A stretch of 64,000 bases of DNA, from sequence record MK373784.1; one strand, 5' to 3'. The position numbers and the translations under genes are program-made. Below the pieces are notes generated by a model, which was given only the letters and a program-made list of their open reading frames with translations, did not search any database and was not told the origin of the DNA. Numbering within the stretch: position 1 is the stretch's first letter; the number at the start of each line of letters is the position of its first letter. The stretch comes from Escherichia phage vB_EcoM_MM02. Positions 3,955 to 40,453 of this stretch are shown in pieces.

Positions 3955-4371
3955 TTATGCAACAACCATCTGCTTTTTAATAGCTTCAGGCAGTGATTCA
4001 ATATATTCTGGAATTTTAGAAGCAACAATTTCGCCAGCTGCAATTAGTTGTTCGTCGGCATCAACACAGTAAAAATCTTCAAGGCGTTCAGAACCGTCTT
4101 TATCAAGAACGATTTTAGCACCTGCTTCGATAGAATCTTTATAGTGCTTACGCATCAGATGAATCCACATATCAGATACATCGTTATCAATAAAACCATA
4201 AATCATAAAACGAGTTTCTTGTGGCAAAGATTGGAGTTTTTTAGCACTTGCGTCATCACAATGCAGGACCCATGCTTTACGAACACGATTATGGTTATGT
4301 GGGTTAGCGTCAGTACGGATAGAAGTAACTTTCAGATCAGCAGCAGTGAAACCTTTAGCAGTAGTAAACAT
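3955..4371 (-). CDS. rpbA: RNA polymerase-binding protein RpbA (by synteny)
   Basis: 138-aa ORF immediately upstream of 45, the T4 rpbA position; no motif check possible. Confidence 0.5.
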   Translation of the reverse strand: MFTTAKGFTAADLKVTSIRTDANPHNHNRVRKAWVLHCDDASAKKLQSLPQETRFMIYGFIDNDVSDMWIHLMRKHYKDSIEAGAKIVLDKDGSERLEDFYCVDADEQLIAAGEIVASKIPEYIESLPEAIKKQMVVA

Positions 4372-4591: not shown

Positions 4592-4614
4592 GATGTGGTC
4601 ATTATAACCACATC
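4592..4614 (-). promoter_or_regulatory. Inverted repeat enclosing a TTATAAT box (promoter/stem-loop cassette)
   Basis: gatgtgg ... ccacatc arms flank attataa, just upstream of the 4384..4584 ORF. Confidence 0.4.
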
Positions 4615-4626
4615 GTGTTAAAGCGT

Positions 4627-6315
4627 TTATGAAACAGTCATTACAGTAAATCGTCCAACTTTGCTCATTTGAAGATGTTGTCCATAAGCTTGTGGGTCAT
4701 GGTCTCTGTGACTAATTATAAACACGTTTGCATCGGTTAGAGAGTTAAGAATTGTTGAAATGGCTTTAATACCTTCGGAATCAGTCGCGGAATCCATGAC
4801 TTCGTCCATAATTAATGTATTGATTCTAACACCAGAGACCTTTTCAGCAATATCTCGCCACGTAAACAACAATGCGATATCGATACGCGCTTTTTCGCCT
4901 TGACTAAATGAAGCATAACTGAACTCTTCACGGCCACGTGATTTTATAGATTCATTGAATTCTTCATCAATAGAAAACACGTAATCGGCTTCCATGATTT
5001 TAAGATAATGGTTAATCTGCTTGTTGAACAGAGGCACATATTTTTTAATGATAGCACCTTTAATACCAGAATCTTTTAACATATCTGTGATAATACCACG
5101 ATGGTATTTTTCAAGAACGATATCTGATTTTGTTTTAATGATTTTATCAAGTTCTTTTTGAAGCAAAGCTATCTCATCGGCATGGTCGATAAATTCTGCT
5201 GAGGCTTGCTCTATTGCAGCTTTAACTTTCTTAGCTTTATCAATAGTGGCAATCATTGCTTGTTTCTTGGTACGAATATCAGATGCAAGGTCCTGTTTAG
5301 TCTTAACATTAGCTCTATATTCGTCCACTAGGACACTCAGGTTATCTCTGTGACATGTAAGTTGCTCGAATGAGTGATTACATTCGTGAAGCTTATCGGT
5401 AATCTTAGAGACAATAGGGTCACCCTGGTGCAACTGTGATGCGCAAGTAGGACATGTACCGCCATCGTGATACATCTTAATAACTTTGTTGTATGAGTCG
5501 ATTTTAGATTTAATCAAGAATGCTTCTTGTCCTATCTTGTTGAATGCCTCAGTAGGGTCTTCATCAAGAACGATATTAAGTAGTCGCTCATTAGCTTCTT
5601 CGATTTCTGCTTTTAATGAACGAGCTTCTTTGGCTAGGTCGTCATACATATTCTGTAGACGCGCTACATTATCACCAGATAATTTCTTTTGACGTTCGAT
5701 ATTCTCGTTATAAATCTTAATTTGTTGGATAACACCATCTTTCTTAGCATCGAGAACTTGTCCCTGGGAATTAAGTTCTCGAACTTGAGACTTATTGATT
5801 TTATCCATTTCAGCGAGTGTGCCGACTTCTAAAAGGTCTTCGACAAGTTTTCTACGAGCAGGGGTGCTAAGAGCCATGAAAGGGGTATACCCTGCCGTCC
5901 CAAGCACAACGATCTGTTTAAAAGACGCGTATGACATTCCGATGCTACGTTCAAATTCTTCTTGGAAGTCACGACTGCTGGCAGATTCATCGAGACGAAC
6001 ACCGTCAACGGAGATTTCGAAAATATTGGGCTTTTGGCCGCGTCTAATGAAGTATTTTTTATCATCGAATTCCATCCAAAGCTCAACTAAGAGCTCTTTC
6101 TTGTTCGTGCTATTAATGATTTGTCCTTTCTTAACATCACGAAATGGTTTACCGAAAAGTCCGAAAGTAATGGCTTCTAACATCGTAGATTTACCACCGC
6201 CATTTTTACCAGTGATTAATGTCTTTTGGACTTTATCTAATTGGATATCAATAGGATTCCCACCTACCGACATGATGTTTTGATAACGAACACGATTTAA
6301 TTTAAATGATTTCAT
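4627..6315 (-). CDS. 46: Recombination endonuclease subunit gp46 (Rad50/SbcC-like ATPase)
   Basis: 562 aa; N-terminal Walker A GKNGGGKST, long coiled-coil middle, C-terminal ABC signature region. Confidence 0.9.
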   Translation of the reverse strand: MKSFKLNRVRYQNIMSVGGNPIDIQLDKVQKTLITGKNGGGKSTMLEAITFGLFGKPFRDVKKGQIINSTNKKELLVELWMEFDDKKYFIRRGQKPNIFEISVDGVRLDESASSRDFQEEFERSIGMSYASFKQIVVLGTAGYTPFMALSTPARRKLVEDLLEVGTLAEMDKINKSQVRELNSQGQVLDAKKDGVIQQIKIYNENIERQKKLSGDNVARLQNMYDDLAKEARSLKAEIEEANERLLNIVLDEDPTEAFNKIGQEAFLIKSKIDSYNKVIKMYHDGGTCPTCASQLHQGDPIVSKITDKLHECNHSFEQLTCHRDNLSVLVDEYRANVKTKQDLASDIRTKKQAMIATIDKAKKVKAAIEQASAEFIDHADEIALLQKELDKIIKTKSDIVLEKYHRGIITDMLKDSGIKGAIIKKYVPLFNKQINHYLKIMEADYVFSIDEEFNESIKSRGREEFSYASFSQGEKARIDIALLFTWRDIAEKVSGVRINTLIMDEVMDSATDSEGIKAISTILNSLTDANVFIISHRDHDPQAYGQHLQMSKVGRFTVMTVS

Positions 6316-6795: not shown

Positions 6796-7811
6796 TGTGT
6801 TGCCTCAATATAAAGTTCGTTGGAATATTTGACCAGCGCTTCTCTGTCTTCGTCTGAGATATCTGGAATCGCGTCAATATATTCTTTAATGATATCTTGA
6901 AGTGATTTAATCTCGATTTCCTGGTCGTCATCAGATTCAACACTGTTATCAACTTTAGAAACCATGCGAAGAGAGTGAACTACTTTTTCAAGTTCAGATT
7001 CAAACTTAGTCAACTCTGAATCAATTTCTGATACTATAACACGTACGGCTAGATTAGTATAATCAGAATAATTGATTTTGCCTTTAAACGGATAAGTGAT
7101 TCGTCGATGCCATGTTGTTTCATTAGGAATAAATTCCATACGTTCAACGTCAGTGTCAAATACCCAGAATCCGCGAGGGTCGTTCTCATCACCTGCAGTA
7201 AGGGTCCATGGTGTCCCAATATATTTGACGTTAGCAGCTTCAGAGATTGTGTGGAAGTGGCCAGACCAGACTTGTTTATAGGTCTTTAAGAAATCAGGTT
7301 CAAGCCCATGAGACTTCATTCCTTTATAGAAATAAAAGCCATTCAGTTCCCAGTGCCCAACACAATACGCTGCGGAAGAAGTCTTGATGTGCTCTAAGAT
7401 TTCACCTGTATTTTCTTCACACATCCATGGAACGATATCAATCAGACATCCGTCAAAATCTACAGTAGTTGGATGCTCGTAAATAGTAAAGTTTTCAAAT
7501 TGAGTCAACAATTCAGAAACAGTGTTAGGTGTTATTGTATTCTTAAACGCCATGTCATGGTTTCCTATCGTGACATGAACGTGAATGCCTGCTTTAGAAA
7601 TCATATCAACAATTTCACGATTGAATTCCATTGTACGATGTGTTATTGCTTTACGGACGTCAAACCAATCGCCGTACTGAATCCAAGTTTTAATCCCGTG
7701 TTTCTTAGAGTATTCAATTGCTTGACGAATACCATCACGTTGAATATCTTGAACCCATGGGTCGTCTTGTTTGACTCCGATATGGAAGTCGCCTAAGTGC
7801 AAAATTTTCAT
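6792..7811 (-). CDS. 47: Recombination endonuclease subunit gp47 (Mre11/SbcD-like)
   Basis: 339 aa; calcineurin-like phosphoesterase motifs (LGDFH, GNHD); same length as T4 gp47. Confidence 0.9.
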   Translation of the reverse strand: MKILHLGDFHIGVKQDDPWVQDIQRDGIRQAIEYSKKHGIKTWIQYGDWFDVRKAITHRTMEFNREIVDMISKAGIHVHVTIGNHDMAFKNTITPNTVSELLTQFENFTIYEHPTTVDFDGCLIDIVPWMCEENTGEILEHIKTSSAAYCVGHWELNGFYFYKGMKSHGLEPDFLKTYKQVWSGHFHTISEAANVKYIGTPWTLTAGDENDPRGFWVFDTDVERMEFIPNETTWHRRITYPFKGKINYSDYTNLAVRVIVSEIDSELTKFESELEKVVHSLRMVSKVDNSVESDDDQEIEIKSLQDIIKEYIDAIPDISDEDREALVKYSNELYIEATQ

Positions 7812-36404: not shown

Positions 36405-36710
36405 TTATTTTCCTCGACATTCTTTAATGAAATTTTCTAGATTGGTAGATTCAATAGCTTTTTTACGAGCTTCTGCATGTTCTTCTTCAGACAATTTACA
36501 TTTATAATTAACCCAGACATTATGGTCGAAACTAGTCGTGGCATATAATAACAATGCTCCAACGAATAGCAAAAACGGCGATAAGAATACAAAACCAGGA
36601 ACACCATCCATACTGTAAGCCTTTTGTAATACTGCAACAGAAAGAGCTGCGTAAAAAAGTGATACAAATATTGTTAAAAGACCAATTCGGTTGGTTTCGC
36701 CTAATTTCAT
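36405..36710 (-). CDS. Hypothetical membrane protein, C-terminal FIKECR motif
   Basis: 101 aa; two TM helices; ends ...ENFIKECRGK. Confidence 0.45.
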   Translation of the reverse strand: MKLGETNRIGLLTIFVSLFYAALSVAVLQKAYSMDGVPGFVFLSPFLLFVGALLLYATTSFDHNVWVNYKCKLSEEEHAEARKKAIESTNLENFIKECRGK

Positions 36711-36768
36711 AATATTCTCCTCATGTTTTAATAGGACTACTATAACATAGTCCTATCAGTTTGTACAC

Positions 36769-36987
36769 TTATTTTGACATTTCTTCGATGTCACGACGAT
36801 ACCCATCACGAACTTCACGAAGAGCTTCAAGGCCACACATAGGCTCGATACCAGTAATGTGAACTTGATTAATCTGATACTCTACATCTTCTAACTGAGC
36901 GAAAACATAACGACGTTCTGCTGCACAACCAGGTTTAGCTTTACCGAAACGTTTATTCAAAGTAGTCATTTTTATATCTCCATTCAC
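36769..36987 (-). CDS. Hypothetical protein
   Basis: 72-aa ORF. Confidence 0.4.
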   Translation of the reverse strand: MNGDIKMTTLNKRFGKAKPGCAAERRYVFAQLEDVEYQINQVHITGIEPMCGLEALREVRDGYRRDIEEMSK

Positions 36988-37049
36988 TCATTTGTTTTGA
37001 TAGGTCTATAGTATCAACAACTACAGACCTTGTAAACTGTTTTGCGAAA

Positions 37050-38006
37050 TTATTTGAAAGGTTTTACCATATGGAAATTTTGTTTGAAACGTTTGACGTA
37101 ATCGTCGTGTCCTAAGCTTTGGTACATACTTACTACTTTGCTATAATTTTCCCAAGCGAACTCACGGAACCATCCTGATGTGATTGATGTACAGACCTTT
37201 TCAAGGGCCATCATAAAACTATCACGTGGATGGATTTTAAAGTCGTTAGGAATCTGTGAACGTTCAAGAGCTAATACACAAGCTTCTTCATATACACCGG
37301 CTAATTTAACCATTTCTGGGAATGATTCGAACTTCTCGCGCGATGTCATAACTTCTGAGCCTTCTTTCATATAAAACTTATAAGCAGGCTGGTCAGTTAG
37401 TGCAATGGCTTCATGGATAGTATCATGGTCATACGTATAGATGTCATCTTTAAAGAACGCACTTTTAGAAGTGTCAAGAACTGGGTGAGCATAATTCAAG
37501 GTTTCTTTCTGGCGTTTCAGCATAATTTCAGTAAGTTCATCGTTCAGTGTAACACCTTTACCACGAAGATACTGAATATGGTTCATAGTCTTTAAAAAGA
37601 ATGGATTATTTTTCTTGAAACGATGAGACATCTTAATTGCAAGACATATCTCAGGAGTTGCCCAGTAAAACCCGTTCAAACGGTCTTTAGTCAAATTTTT
37701 CTTGGCGTATTTTAAAAGGTCATAAGAAGACGTGAAATCTTCAGGAGTGAGTTCACCGACTAGTTCGCGAACGTTAGTGATAGCCGGAACGATGTATGCT
37801 TCAAAATGAGTTTCGCGTCCATTATGGAAGCATTTGAAAACTTGGACATCAGGGTTATCTTGGTGAACATATACACCCATCATTTGATTTTTGAATGCAT
37901 TCCAAGAACCTTGGTCCGCAATAAAGTCCCAATCACTATTTTTAATAGCGCTAGAATCAATAAGACCGTGATAGTGAAGTGCACGAGAACCAATAACTAA
38001 CATCAT
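37050..38006 (-). CDS. Hypothetical 318-aa protein
   Basis: Largest ORF in the e-tRNA island; N-terminal VIGSRALHYHG...SDWDF is weakly NTase-like. Confidence 0.45.
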   Translation of the reverse strand: MMLVIGSRALHYHGLIDSSAIKNSDWDFIADQGSWNAFKNQMMGVYVHQDNPDVQVFKCFHNGRETHFEAYIVPAITNVRELVGELTPEDFTSSYDLLKYAKKNLTKDRLNGFYWATPEICLAIKMSHRFKKNNPFFLKTMNHIQYLRGKGVTLNDELTEIMLKRQKETLNYAHPVLDTSKSAFFKDDIYTYDHDTIHEAIALTDQPAYKFYMKEGSEVMTSREKFESFPEMVKLAGVYEEACVLALERSQIPNDFKIHPRDSFMMALEKVCTSITSGWFREFAWENYSKVVSMYQSLGHDDYVKRFKQNFHMVKPFK

Positions 38007-38034
38007 AATATTTTCCTCGGATTAATTCATTAAC

Positions 38035-38286
38035 TTAAATTTCACGACATGCGATATTATATTCATCCCAGAGGTCATCATGTGAAGCCTCTACCAATGG
38101 AACGATTGTACCGTTTATGTCTTCATTATAAGGGCAAATTGTACAGTGCGCATCTTCGAATCGGATGCCTTTGTGTTCAGATTTTTTATAACGCATATCG
38201 AATATCTTTGCAAACTTTTCACGAGTAATGGTTTTACCAACCACTTTGGTTCCTATACTTTCGTAATAAATCATTGTGGACTCCAT
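38035..38286 (-). CDS. Hypothetical protein
   Basis: 83-aa ORF. Confidence 0.4.
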   Translation of the reverse strand: MESTMIYYESIGTKVVGKTITREKFAKIFDMRYKKSEHKGIRFEDAHCTICPYNEDINGTIVPLVEASHDDLWDEYNIACREI

Positions 38287-38336
38287 TTGTTTTGATAGGA
38301 CTACTATAACATAGCCCTATCTTGTTGTAAACTGTT

Positions 38337-38534
38337 TTAGCAAGAATAACTAGATGATACCCAGCCTTGAACAGTGATACTATTGTGGGATAATGAGATC
38401 GCGTCCTGGAGATTCAGACCTGCGTTATCTTCAATCCATAATGTAACTTCTTCGCGTTCTTCTGTTGCAATTTGGAACAGGTTTTCCAGAGCAGCTACTG
38501 CCGTACGTACAGCACAATCTAATTCACGAGACAT
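38337..38534 (-). CDS. Small protein of the C-terminal GWVSSSxxC family
   Basis: 65 aa; ends ...VQGWVSSSYSC. Confidence 0.4.
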   Translation of the reverse strand: MSRELDCAVRTAVAALENLFQIATEEREEVTLWIEDNAGLNLQDAISLSHNSITVQGWVSSSYSC

Positions 38535-38543
38535 ATTGTTTCC

Positions 38544-38816
38544 TTAGCAAGTGTGAGAAGATGCGACCCAACCACCGGTTTCGAGGCTCAGGTTGTAGTC
38601 GTATTGGTAAACGTCAGCCCATTCAGCATAGCCGTTTTTTGTACAACGTTCAAGATCGGCTTTAAGATGTCCGGGTGAATGATAGGTTCCACCCATACCA
38701 TAAGCTGGGTACAAGTTGAACGTTGTGTTTTGTTTATCAGCAATTTCTTTGGCAGCCTCAATAGCTGCATAGATTTTTGCTACAGCTTCAGCCAGTTCGG
38801 TTTGTTCTTTAGACAT
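38544..38816 (-). CDS. Small protein of the C-terminal GWVSSSxxC family
   Basis: 90 aa; ends ...ETGGWVASSHTC. Confidence 0.4.
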   Translation of the reverse strand: MSKEQTELAEAVAKIYAAIEAAKEIADKQNTTFNLYPAYGMGGTYHSPGHLKADLERCTKNGYAEWADVYQYDYNLSLETGGWVASSHTC

Positions 38817-38825
38817 AATGATTCC

Positions 38826-39131
38826 TTAGCACAACGCAGAAGACGAAACCCAAGCACCTTCAGTAATAACGTAACCATTACCTTCACGCTTAACATCGCC
38901 ACCATTATTTTCAATTTCATCTTTCATCCACTGGGATACGATTTCACCCTTAGGATAATAAGTACGACCGCTACCATAATCACCTACAGAAAATGATACG
39001 GCATATTGGTCTGCGATCTTTGTTGCTTCTTCTTCGATACGTTCAGCTTGATTCAGAAGTTTATAAATTGCATCTGAAGCGGATTTGGCATCATTAAACT
39101 CTGGTACTTTAATTTCAATAATCTTACTCAT
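38826..39131 (-). CDS. Small protein of the C-terminal GWVSSSxxC family
   Basis: 101 aa; ends ...TEGAWVSSSALC. Confidence 0.4.
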   Translation of the reverse strand: MSKIIEIKVPEFNDAKSASDAIYKLLNQAERIEEEATKIADQYAVSFSVGDYGSGRTYYPKGEIVSQWMKDEIENNGGDVKREGNGYVITEGAWVSSSALC

Positions 39132-39487
39132 TTTCTACATTCCTTAATAAAGTTTTCGATTGTTTCATTTTCACGTCTAGCTAGGAGTTCATTATAACTA
39201 ATCATTTGAGAAGCGTAAACCTTTTTATTTTTCTTGTTGTGGTTTATAAAATCGTAGTAAAAATAGACTATAGTACAAAATGATGCGATGGATGCAAAGG
39301 CTTGGGTATACCGTAAGTCCTGCCATTGGTCTGTGAATCCACCAGTGTTCCCTATAAATCCTAACACAACGCCGTCAATAAGAAATCCAACTAATCCAAA
39401 GGCAAATCCCATGCCAATACTCATAATAAAAATTAGAATGTTCTCACCAAGAGAAGGCCATACGGTTAAGAGTTGAGGCTTTTGCAT
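39128..39487 (-). CDS. Hypothetical membrane protein, C-terminal FIKECR motif
   Basis: 119 aa; about 3 TM helices; ends ...ENFIKECRK. Confidence 0.45.
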   Translation of the reverse strand: MQKPQLLTVWPSLGENILIFIMSIGMGFAFGLVGFLIDGVVLGFIGNTGGFTDQWQDLRYTQAFASIASFCTIVYFYYDFINHNKKNKKVYASQMISYNELLARRENETIENFIKECRK

Positions 39488-39861
39488 CTTATTTCCTTAA
39501 CGAATTCCATAGCTTCTTCATATTCATACTTTTTAACAGCTTCATCATACTGAGCTTGGGCTTTTGCGCACTGAACTCTCCATTCTCTTAATCGGGCTCT
39601 GTGATGACGGCCTTGGTGCCAATATCCTACCCAATTAATAGGCATTAATAAAAACGGTACAATAAGTGGTGCGACGAACATTAATGAAAATGCTGCATCA
39701 GACGATATAACTTCACTAGAATCTAAAACAGCTCCTATAATCATAAAGATTAAAAATGCTAAAGCTAAAATAGGGCCAAATAGTACTTCATTTGGGATTA
39801 ATTTACGCTTGTATTCATACGCCCAGGGCTTACTTGGCATGTATAGGGTTGGCTTTGACAT
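39466..39861 (-). CDS. Hypothetical membrane protein
   Basis: Likely start MSKPTLYMPSK; two TM helices; C-terminus ...EFVKEIRCK. Confidence 0.4.
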   Translation of the reverse strand: MSKPTLYMPSKPWAYEYKRKLIPNEVLFGPILALAFLIFMIIGAVLDSSEVISSDAAFSLMFVAPLIVPFLLMPINWVGYWHQGRHHRARLREWRVQCAKAQAQYDEAVKKYEYEEAMEFVKEIRCKSLNS

Positions 39862-40453
39862 ATTCTCTACATTCCATAATAAATTGCTCAAGGATTAAAT
39901 TGTTAGTGAAATTAGGACTAACAACCATAGTTTCATAAAGCGCATCAATAGCACTTAAAGCATCAACTCTTTTAAGCAAAGGCTTGCCTTCATACATAGT
40001 TTCAGAATCGATGATTAACGTAAAGTAATATTTTTTATTATCGACTAGAACTTCTGTATCGATATAAAACATATTAGACCTCAGAAGCTTATCTCTAAAA
40101 CCATAATAATCTTCAGAGCGTTCGCTGATATATTCCCATTCAGTGTTTAAACAACAAACAGACCATGTAGGAGCAACGAAATCAGTGAATCTAATATCAT
40201 GGTCTGCAACTAGTTTAGCAATAGCTCCGATATCATGAATCATAATACCTGGGGCTAATAAAGATTTTCTGCTATGGCTAGCCGTTTTCTCGGTGGTCTC
40301 ATAAGAAGACGACCAGTACCATTTACGTCCGGTTGCAACATATCGTAATGAATCAACTAAAGACGTAGGTGGATTTACCTTATCTCGGAACTCTTCGAAC
40401 ATTGAGTCAATATCATTATTTTGGTTTCGCATGTTAACTCCTTTATTATCCAA
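39830..40453 (-). CDS. Hypothetical protein with FIMECR motif near C-terminus
   Basis: 207-aa ORF. Confidence 0.4.
   Translation of the reverse strand: MDNKGVNMRNQNNDIDSMFEEFRDKVNPPTSLVDSLRYVATGRKWYWSSSYETTEKTASHSRKSLLAPGIMIHDIGAIAKLVADHDIRFTDFVAPTWSVCCLNTEWEYISERSEDYYGFRDKLLRSNMFYIDTEVLVDNKKYYFTLIIDSETMYEGKPLLKRVDALSAIDALYETMVVSPNFTNNLILEQFIMECREYVKANPIHAK

Follow-up and report, generated by a model that had tools for sequence, protein, structure and literature searches.

Nucleotidyltransferases of the Pol-beta type act on nucleic acids as well as on proteins, and several of them are encoded together with a small cognate partner. The MenT/AbiE toxins (DUF1814), built on this fold, are used by bacteria for growth control and abortive infection, and MenT1 is controlled by MenA1, a 68-aa, mostly helical protein encoded with it (PMC10435456, PMC11375011). 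MenT-type enzymes and RlaP (PF10127, T4 NrdC.11), a phage-encoded RNA-ligase-associated nucleotidyltransferase that repairs RNA 3' ends, act on RNA 3' ends and not on proteins (PMC10435456, PMC12776372). Pol-beta-type nucleotidyltransferases that modify proteins include GlnE, GlnD, DrrA and MntA, the last belonging to the MntA-HepT (MNT-HEPN, type VII) toxin-antitoxin system; such enzymes transfer NMP to a hydroxyl side chain of a cognate protein, and the acceptor is usually Tyr. The present analysis deals with a phage locus in which a predicted nucleotidyltransferase of this type is encoded near three small proteins that share a C-terminal tail.

The locus lies in a 64,000-nucleotide stretch of DNA from Escherichia phage vB_EcoM_MM02 (MK373784.1), hereafter referred to as the window, which belongs to a Mosigvirus, an RB69/APCEc01-like T4-type phage. 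Bases 38000-39500 are 99.5% identical to Escherichia phage APCEc01 and Shigella phage JK36, and the region lies between e/nudE/e.2 and e.3-e.6. The features of the locus are collected in the table; the three tail-bearing proteins are referred to as F1, F2 and F3, and all three are annotated as hypothetical proteins in the public records.

Features of the tail-protein locus and its surroundings (positions are those of the window)
Feature	Coordinates	Strand	Length	Description
F3	38826-39131	-	101 aa	RB69ORF139c equivalent, intact here; phrog_899 (E 1.3e-22); N-terminal amphipathic helix, DYGSGRTYYP loop, acidic variable segment; ends in ...GAWVSSSALC
F2	38544-38816	-	90 aa	RB69ORF137c; phrog_899 (E 5e-19); AYGMGGTYHSP loop; ends in ...GGWVASSHTC
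F1	38337-38534	-	65 aa	RB69ORF136c; phrog_4882 (E 7.7e-37); short form with the N-terminal helix and the tail but without the YGxGxTY loop; ends in ...QGWVSSSYSC
Tail of F3	38826-38852	-		W-V-S-S-S-A-L-C plus the stop codon
Tail of F2	38544-38570	-		W-V-A-S-S-H-T-C plus the stop codon
Tail of F1	38337-38363	-		W-V-S-S-S-Y-S-C plus the stop codon
Predicted nucleotidyltransferase gene	37050-38006	-	318 aa	DUF7277+DUF7275 (Pfam E 9e-28 and 2.9e-78); RB69ORF134c, phrog_2141
Intervening gene	38035-38286	-	83 aa	RB69ORF135c, phrog_3723; between the trio and the nucleotidyltransferase gene; not a family member
Intergenic signals after F1	38294-38331	-		Hairpin (GATAGG...CCTATC, 38294-38321), annotated as a terminator in a 99% identical phage (locus coordinates 4287-4320 there), overlapping a promoter-like site (TTTACA-17-TATAGT, 38331 to 38303); consensus matches only
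Promoter-like site	39191-39219	-		Inside e.3, upstream of F3 (TTTACG-17-TATAAT); annotated as a T4-type middle promoter in a near-identical phage (locus 5192-5215)

The three tandem ORFs and their shared ending, as noted in a preliminary description made from the sequence alone, are confirmed, the ORFs being on the minus strand. The pattern W[VIL][AS]SS..C-stop occurs exactly three times in the six-frame translation of the window, only at these three ORF ends, and even the shorter W[VIL][AS]SS occurs nowhere else. The coupling of each stop to the next ribosome-binding site, also noted there, is correct, since each stop is part of TAAGGA, 9 nt before the next ATG. The use of different synonymous codons holds in part: Val is encoded by GTA, GTC and GTT and the first Ser/Ala by TCA, GCA and TCG, while Cys is TGC in all three; the conservation is therefore at the protein level. 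The possibility that the terminal Cys is forced by the overlap of the stop codon and the ribosome-binding site was considered and rejected, because the Cys is invariant in phages with other gene junctions.

The statement that the N-terminal parts are unrelated is, however, wrong as a general claim. F2 and F3 align over 73 residues (BLASTP E 2e-6), both match phrog_899, and with the last ten residues removed each still matches a profile built from other, tail-less family sequences (E 3e-19 and 1e-33, respectively). The body of F1 shows no direct similarity to the other two, but F1-type proteins without the tail match the N-terminal helix and first strand of F2-type proteins from other phages (E 3e-5), and F1 is best read as a shortened relative that lost the central loop. 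Thus, the reading of three unrelated proteins sharing a tag is rejected for F2 and F3 and weakened for F1; these are diverged tandem paralogues. The common plan comprises an amphipathic helix ending in I-A-D-x-x-G, usually a (D/A)YG(S/M)G(R/G)TYYP loop, an acidic variable stretch and the tail G-x-W-x-(S/A/P)-S-S-x-x-Cys-COOH. An AlphaFold2 model of F3 based on a 40-sequence alignment is confident (pLDDT 92.4) and shows a 29-residue helix (15-43) packed on a small sheet, with W-V-S of the tail forming the last strand (93-96) and S-S-x-x a short terminal turn; this fold has no match in the PDB.

Searches for known domains in the three proteins with Pfam, NCBIfam and PADLOC gave nothing significant, and the weak hits (XkdF-like protease, E 0.007; tail fiber gp32, E 0.01; PDC-S49, E 0.01) fall below the curated cut-offs and were rejected. 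Sequence searches of the PDB returned only coiled-coil noise for the small proteins and nothing for the predicted nucleotidyltransferase. Relatives of F3, F2 and F1 were found by tblastn in 394, 282 and 251 phage records, respectively, spanning Escherichia, Klebsiella, Enterobacter, Serratia, Yersinia, Aeromonas and a Xanthomonas jumbo phage. A word-seeded profile search gave 60 proteins, of which all complete ones end in the motif, and an exhaustive HMMER search of 1.84 billion representatives gave 734 clusters at E<=1e-3, the profile match running to the last residue in nearly all hits. Among the 136 new representatives listed, 130 end in Cys, 129 have Trp at -8, 133 have Ser at -5 and 129 have Ser at -4; position -6 is S, A or P, while positions -7, -3 and -2 vary. 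These proteins are short (median 86 aa) and acidic (median pI 4.5), and in 87 of 136 the terminal Cys is the only Cys. The absence of the motif from homologues in related phages had been named beforehand as the observation that would refute its significance; instead, the motif recurs in essentially every homologue, and far beyond related phages, and it is the most constrained part of these proteins. It is also kept on truncated relatives and on a few bodies with no detectable similarity.

The gene neighbourhoods provided the new finding. A distant family member on a metagenomic contig is followed at once by a DUF7277+DUF7275 protein, and the window encodes the same two-domain protein two genes downstream of the trio, on the same strand. 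The association was examined in several ways. Firstly, Aeromonas CC2 (Emmerichvirinae), Yersinia TG1, Xanthomonas XbC2 (a 368-kb jumbo phage), Klebsiella FKP3 (Stephanstirmvirinae) and the metagenome contig carry one to three tail-bearing ORFs within about 1 kb upstream of a homologue of this protein, with flanking genes that differ among them. Secondly, of 80 IMG/VR loci fetched with the alignment of the 318-aa protein, 73 were scored automatically and two more on inspection as carrying one to six tail-bearing ORFs upstream on the same strand, although the 80 loci are not phylogenetically independent. In those loci the C-terminal pattern W.{1,2}SS.{0,3}C.{0,1}$ hits 222 of 6635 ORFs shorter than 220 aa, all 222 of which are upstream on the strand of the predicted nucleotidyltransferase and none elsewhere. 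Single-linkage clustering of the tail-less bodies placed 201 of the 222 in one cluster, a figure that chaining may inflate. Acinetobacter (Twarogvirinae) and Pseudomonas (Otagovirus) phages show the same arrangement, while in a Stenotrophomonas phage and one contig the small genes lie downstream of the 318-aa-type gene.

In the reverse direction, a DNA pattern for the tail plus a stop codon retrieved 120 stretches; all 14 family-positive loci with at least 3 kb of downstream DNA carry the predicted nucleotidyltransferase, eight were too short to judge, six further hits linked to it have bodies that the profile does not recognise, and one possible orphan tail protein has no such gene within 4.5 kb. 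Across one genome for each of 185,579 bacterial and archaeal species, the gene appears in only five contigs, all from metagenome-assembled genomes (2.3 to 167 kb) and all with tail ORFs upstream. There are exceptions to the pairing. One clade of close homologues (the IMG/VR loci L048, L049, L052 and L074), together with L029, lacks tail genes nearby; in that clade the gene is split in L052 and the otherwise invariant W279 and D193 are replaced. The divergent homologues in Streptomyces and Gordonia phages and in roseophage DSS3_VP1 also lack them. The intervening 83-aa gene of the window was not found between the two in the other lineages examined, and its membership of the module is doubtful.

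The 318-aa protein belongs to a large family (2115 clusters), annotated almost everywhere as hypothetical and present in 733 of 50,697 deposited phage genomes across several unrelated groups, which include therapeutic-candidate coliphages and Klebsiella, Acinetobacter and Pseudomonas phages. In 24 aligned homologues G6-S7, D25-x-D27 and E69 are invariant, corresponding to the three Pol-beta nucleotidyltransferase motifs (hG[GS], [DE]h[DE]h, h[DE]h) as defined in PMC10435456, and K125, H128, K139, H194-D195, H198, E240-E241 and E248-R249 in the helical C-terminal domain are invariant as well; these residues also hold in nine more distant homologues. The structural model of the protein best matches the MenT/AbiEii tRNA nucleotidyltransferases, MenT1 being the best match, though with modest scores. 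Genes for RNA ligase, polynucleotide kinase or tRNA lie within a few kb in some loci, but only 23 of the 80 loci have one within 5 kb and there is no baseline for this count; this is a weak hint toward RNA ends as a substrate, as for MenT and RlaP, and the association is much weaker than that with the tail family.

The analysis itself establishes the existence of the family, the conservation of the tail at a fixed distance from the C-terminus, the paralogy of the proteins, their tandem amplification, the gene linkage, and the presence in the neighbour of nucleotidyltransferase residues with a modest fold match; that the small proteins and the putative enzyme work together, that they interact physically, that the tail is the interface, and any binding, modification or other chemistry are inferences. 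A functional link between the two is considered highly likely, whereas recognition of the tail by the predicted enzyme, the explanation favoured here, is about as likely as not. In this view each paralogue would present the same exposed Ser-Ser-(Ser)-x-x-Cys-COOH end to the enzyme. This is suggested by four considerations: the tail is the only element common to all the array members, including truncated ones and a few with unrelated bodies; the predicted enzyme is unusually conserved between very different phages, at 40-50% identity; the conserved tail residues are nucleophiles (Ser, Ser, Cys) rather than core residues; and the strict end position suggests that the free carboxylate is read as well. 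On the other hand, direct evidence of binding or modification is lacking, the placement of W-V-S in the last strand of the F3 model indicates that at least the Trp may be conserved for structural reasons, MenT-type enzymes and RlaP act on RNA 3' ends and not on proteins, the real substrate may be tRNA with the small proteins peripheral, and in the window an unrelated gene and promoter/terminator-like signals separate the trio from its putative partner gene. Within this view the leaning is towards the tail being an acceptor, with O- or S-nucleotidylylation of a tail Ser or Cys, although covalent modification is less likely than not, and the next most likely role is that of a pseudosubstrate that plugs the active site. 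The placement of the Trp in the fold, the action of MenT-like enzymes on RNA and the sequences between the trio and the putative partner gene count against an inhibitor or adaptor role as well.

The preliminary interpretation, that the tail could be a shared recognition tag for a protease, a modification enzyme or a binding partner, is thus partly supported: the tail matches no known signal in the libraries searched and behaves like a shared C-terminal element, and a concrete candidate partner now exists, but nothing points to a protease and the role as a recognition tag remains an inference.

Among the alternatives, antitoxin-like regulation survives best and a pseudosubstrate or antitoxin-like inhibitor is nearly as likely as an acceptor, although it remains no more than a possibility. 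The small proteins would bind and restrain a potentially toxic MenT-like nucleotidyltransferase, mainly through the long N-terminal helix, as MenA1 does for MenT1, while the tail would either plug the active site without being modified or induce auto-modification of the enzyme. The gene order, with small genes directly upstream of the nucleotidyltransferase gene and often abutting or overlapping it, resembles MenA-MenT and AbiEi-AbiEii, MenA1 is dominated by a long helix (PMC10435456) as F3 is predicted to contain one, and the acidity of the small proteins is as expected for something that blocks a nucleic-acid-binding cleft. However, one to six different paralogues per nucleotidyltransferase gene is unlike any described toxin-antitoxin pair, the most conserved part is the tail and not the helix, the C-terminal region of MenA1 is dispensable for antitoxicity (PMC10435456), and no sequence match to DUF1814 or to known antitoxins was found.

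A structural or independent function of the tail is somewhat less likely. The tail would simply close the fold (last strand plus capping turn), or bind a metal or a host target through the terminal Cys, and the co-location would reflect co-inherited accessory genes rather than direct interaction. The model of F3 and the common origin of most family members, by which the tail could be an inherited structural feature, are consistent with this, and the window has other tandem small-gene families with conserved ends. Against it, Ser, Ser and a terminal Cys are unusual as the most invariant residues of a purely structural element, the tail survives loss of the central loop in F1 and occurs on bodies with no detectable similarity, and the linkage holds across unrelated phage groups with different flanking genes, in a fixed orientation apart from the two loci mentioned above. 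The terminal Cys is usually the only Cys, so no intramolecular disulfide or zinc site is possible.

An adaptor role, in which the tail docks every paralogue onto the same enzyme and the variable bodies recruit different targets such as different RNAs or host proteins, is doubtful and entirely inferential. The architecture of a variable body plus a conserved terminal peptide, with several paralogues per genome next to one highly conserved gene, and the presence of extra N-terminal domains of 140-175 aa in some tail-bearing proteins would agree with it, but the bodies are small, acidic and mostly homologous to one another and none has a recognisable binding domain. A RiPP-like precursor, with dehydrated tail serines and a thioether ring at the terminal Cys or with the tail cleaved off as a small product, is very unlikely, since despite a Ser-x(2-4)-Cys spacing that resembles lanthionine-forming cores and several 'precursor' genes next to one enzyme gene, no LanB, LanM, LanKC, radical-SAM, protease or exporter domains were found in the neighbours, F3 is predicted to be well folded rather than a leader-core peptide, and the conserved part would be the core, the opposite of typical RiPP families.

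A more far-reaching possibility, unlikely on present evidence but not excluded, is a phage-specific enzyme-substrate system in which the MenT-like nucleotidyltransferase covalently attaches one or more nucleotides to the tails of a set of one to six small acidic proteins, the protein-nucleotide conjugates acting as effectors during infection, for example as RNA-end mimics, primers or decoys. This would be a new kind of C-terminal post-translational tag and a new use of the MenT/AbiEii fold. If the tail is a nucleotidylylation or docking site, it would define a new protein tag and would clarify what nucleotidyltransferases of this kind do in phages; if it is an inhibitor, that would be a new way of controlling such enzymes. 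The eight-residue tail offers a simple experimental handle that could give access to a widespread, phage-only module built, as predicted, on the fold of the MenT/AbiE toxins, and the finding is worth experimental follow-up. RB69-type phages carry the module between e.2 and e.3, where T4 has nothing, which offers a tractable genetic comparison.

The components of the module are already listed, without function, as phrog_899, phrog_4882 and phrog_2141 and as DUF7277/DUF7275, of which the proteins of the window are full-length members; the entries retrieved describe neither a tail nor any pairing, and full-text searches for the RB69 ORF names, the DUF numbers and the tail in an anti-defence context found nothing relevant, so that the family and the gene pairing appear to be undescribed. 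The small proteins do not resemble the ubiquitin-like, ThiS or MoaD proteins, which have a beta-grasp fold with a C-terminal Gly-Gly, as the tail ends in x-x-Cys and the fold has no PDB match. RlaP is likewise a phage-encoded Pol-beta nucleotidyltransferase, but the 318-aa protein does not match PF10127 and tail-bearing small partners have not been described for RlaP (PMC12776372). With MntA-HepT and with GlnD, GlnE and DrrA the module would share the chemistry proposed here for the tail serines, but the partners have no HEPN Rx4-6H motif (F3 contains no His at all and is modelled as a helix plus a small sheet, not a HEPN helical bundle) and are unrelated to PII or glutamine synthetase. The closest described arrangement is a nucleotidyltransferase with a small cognate partner, as in MenAT/AbiE and MNT-HEPN. 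The 318-aa protein carries Pol-beta motifs I-III as the MenT enzymes do, but it is not a member of DUF1814/AbiEii by sequence, motif IV included, and the module is phage-restricted rather than chromosomal; in place of a single upstream antitoxin gene of the COG5340 or MenA1 type it has one to six tandem partner genes that match no known family in the libraries searched, and the defining feature of these partners, the C-terminal W-x-S-S-S-x-x-C tail, has no counterpart in MenA1.

A second set of neighbouring genes, distinct from the small tail-bearing genes, was also found to share a C-terminal motif. The e.3/e.4/e.5-like membrane proteins and RB69ORF133c end in ...ENFIKECRGK, ...ENFIKECRK, ...EFVKEIRCK... 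and ...EQFIMECRE..., and a related phage locus (L029) has five such genes in a row, ending in ...ENFIRMCRK, ...ECFINDCRK, ...EEFITECRGK, ...ENFISRCRIK and ...LNFIQGIRG. These are predicted membrane proteins and are unrelated to the W-x-S-S-S-x-x-C family. The coordinates of these and the other features considered below are collected in the following table.

Coordinates of additional features observed in the window and in the related loci (L, numbered locus retrieved for comparison)
Sequence	Coordinates	Strand	Feature
Window	36405-36710, 39128-39487, 39466-39891, 39830-40453	minus	e.3/e.4/e.5-like predicted membrane proteins and RB69ORF133c
L029	4576-7363		Row of five genes with the same type of C-terminal motif
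L004	8250-8477		Array protein with the tail motif twice
L007	7649-7873		Array protein with the tail motif twice
L009	3764-4117		Array protein with the tail motif twice
L034	4709-4954		Array protein with the tail motif twice
L095; L096; L097 (Streptomyces, Gordonia and roseophage loci)	4594-4893; 4872-5357 and 5354-5797; 5217-5612		Other small-protein family near the divergent enzyme homologue
L052	4788-4955 and 5085-5714		Enzyme gene split into two ORFs
L171 (IMG/VR contig of 168 kb)	6997-7197		66-aa ORF, possible orphan tail-bearing protein
Window	38035-38286	minus	83-aa protein between the three tail-bearing genes and the nucleotidyltransferase gene (phrog_3723)
Window	about 36405-39131		Block carrying the nucleotidyltransferase and the tail genes
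L223 (phage T4, NC_000866 55000-80000)	12653-13320		e.2 directly abutting e.3

Variation in the tail itself was observed in several members of the W-x-S-S-S-x-x-C family. One subfamily of the array proteins carries the motif twice, with an internal D-W-(L/Q)-(N/S)-S-(S/D)-C-Y-G-E copy and a shortened terminal W-x-(P/T/E/Q)-S-S-C copy, in which Cys directly follows the two serines. Another member, the 84-aa protein P0053 from the profile search, ends in ...GDRWESSSEGWESSSEGWVSSSSQC, with two extra internal GWESSSE units before the terminal tail, which looks like local duplication of the tail. In some deposited genomes, including the RB69 reference, homologues of F3 or F2 (the 101- and 90-aa members in the window) are truncated and lose the tail, as in P0002 (RB69ORF139c, 71 aa), P0046 (mar005P1, 75 aa) and P0006 (64 aa). 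This may come from frameshifts or sequencing errors, and RB69ORF139c plus 138c probably equal the intact 101-aa gene seen in this window. The 66-aa ORF of L171, with the same protein type also present in L116, ends in ...AESGWQSSSYNC; it has a body that the family profile does not recognise and no enzyme gene within 4.5 kb downstream, and it may be an orphan tail-bearing protein or a chance match.

The neighbourhood of the gene for the predicted nucleotidyltransferase (the enzyme) also differs in some lineages. In the Streptomyces, Gordonia and roseophage loci, the divergent enzyme homologue has no tail-bearing neighbours, and another small-protein family with a shared ...G(W/Y)Y.S(Y/W).GG.(Y/W)DG..EEV.P..K.ITV ending lies within about 0.8 kb downstream of the enzyme gene, which may be an alternative partner. 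One clade of close enzyme homologues, found in the IMG/VR loci L048, L049, L052 and L074, has no tail genes within 5 kb. In this clade the otherwise invariant W279 is Arg and D193 is Gln or Glu, and in L052 the enzyme gene is split, which may mark residues tied to the tail partners or decay of the module. In the window, the 83-aa protein lying between the three small genes and the enzyme gene contains ...HCTICPYNEDINGT... and three Cys residues; it has no known family and was not seen between the small genes and the enzyme gene in the other lineages examined.

Annotations of these genes in the deposited genomes are inconsistent and probably wrong. F2 homologues are labelled 'tail completion protein' or 'helicase', an enzyme homologue is labelled 'prohead assembly scaffold protein' and the e.4-like membrane protein of phage JK36 is labelled 'sulfurtransferase', while several copies are filed as Shigella or E. 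coli proteins.

A comparison with phage T4, in which e.2 directly abuts e.3, shows that the whole block carrying the nucleotidyltransferase and the tail genes is an insertion relative to T4 at this position. T4 carries a different nucleotidyltransferase, NrdC.11 (RlaP), elsewhere.
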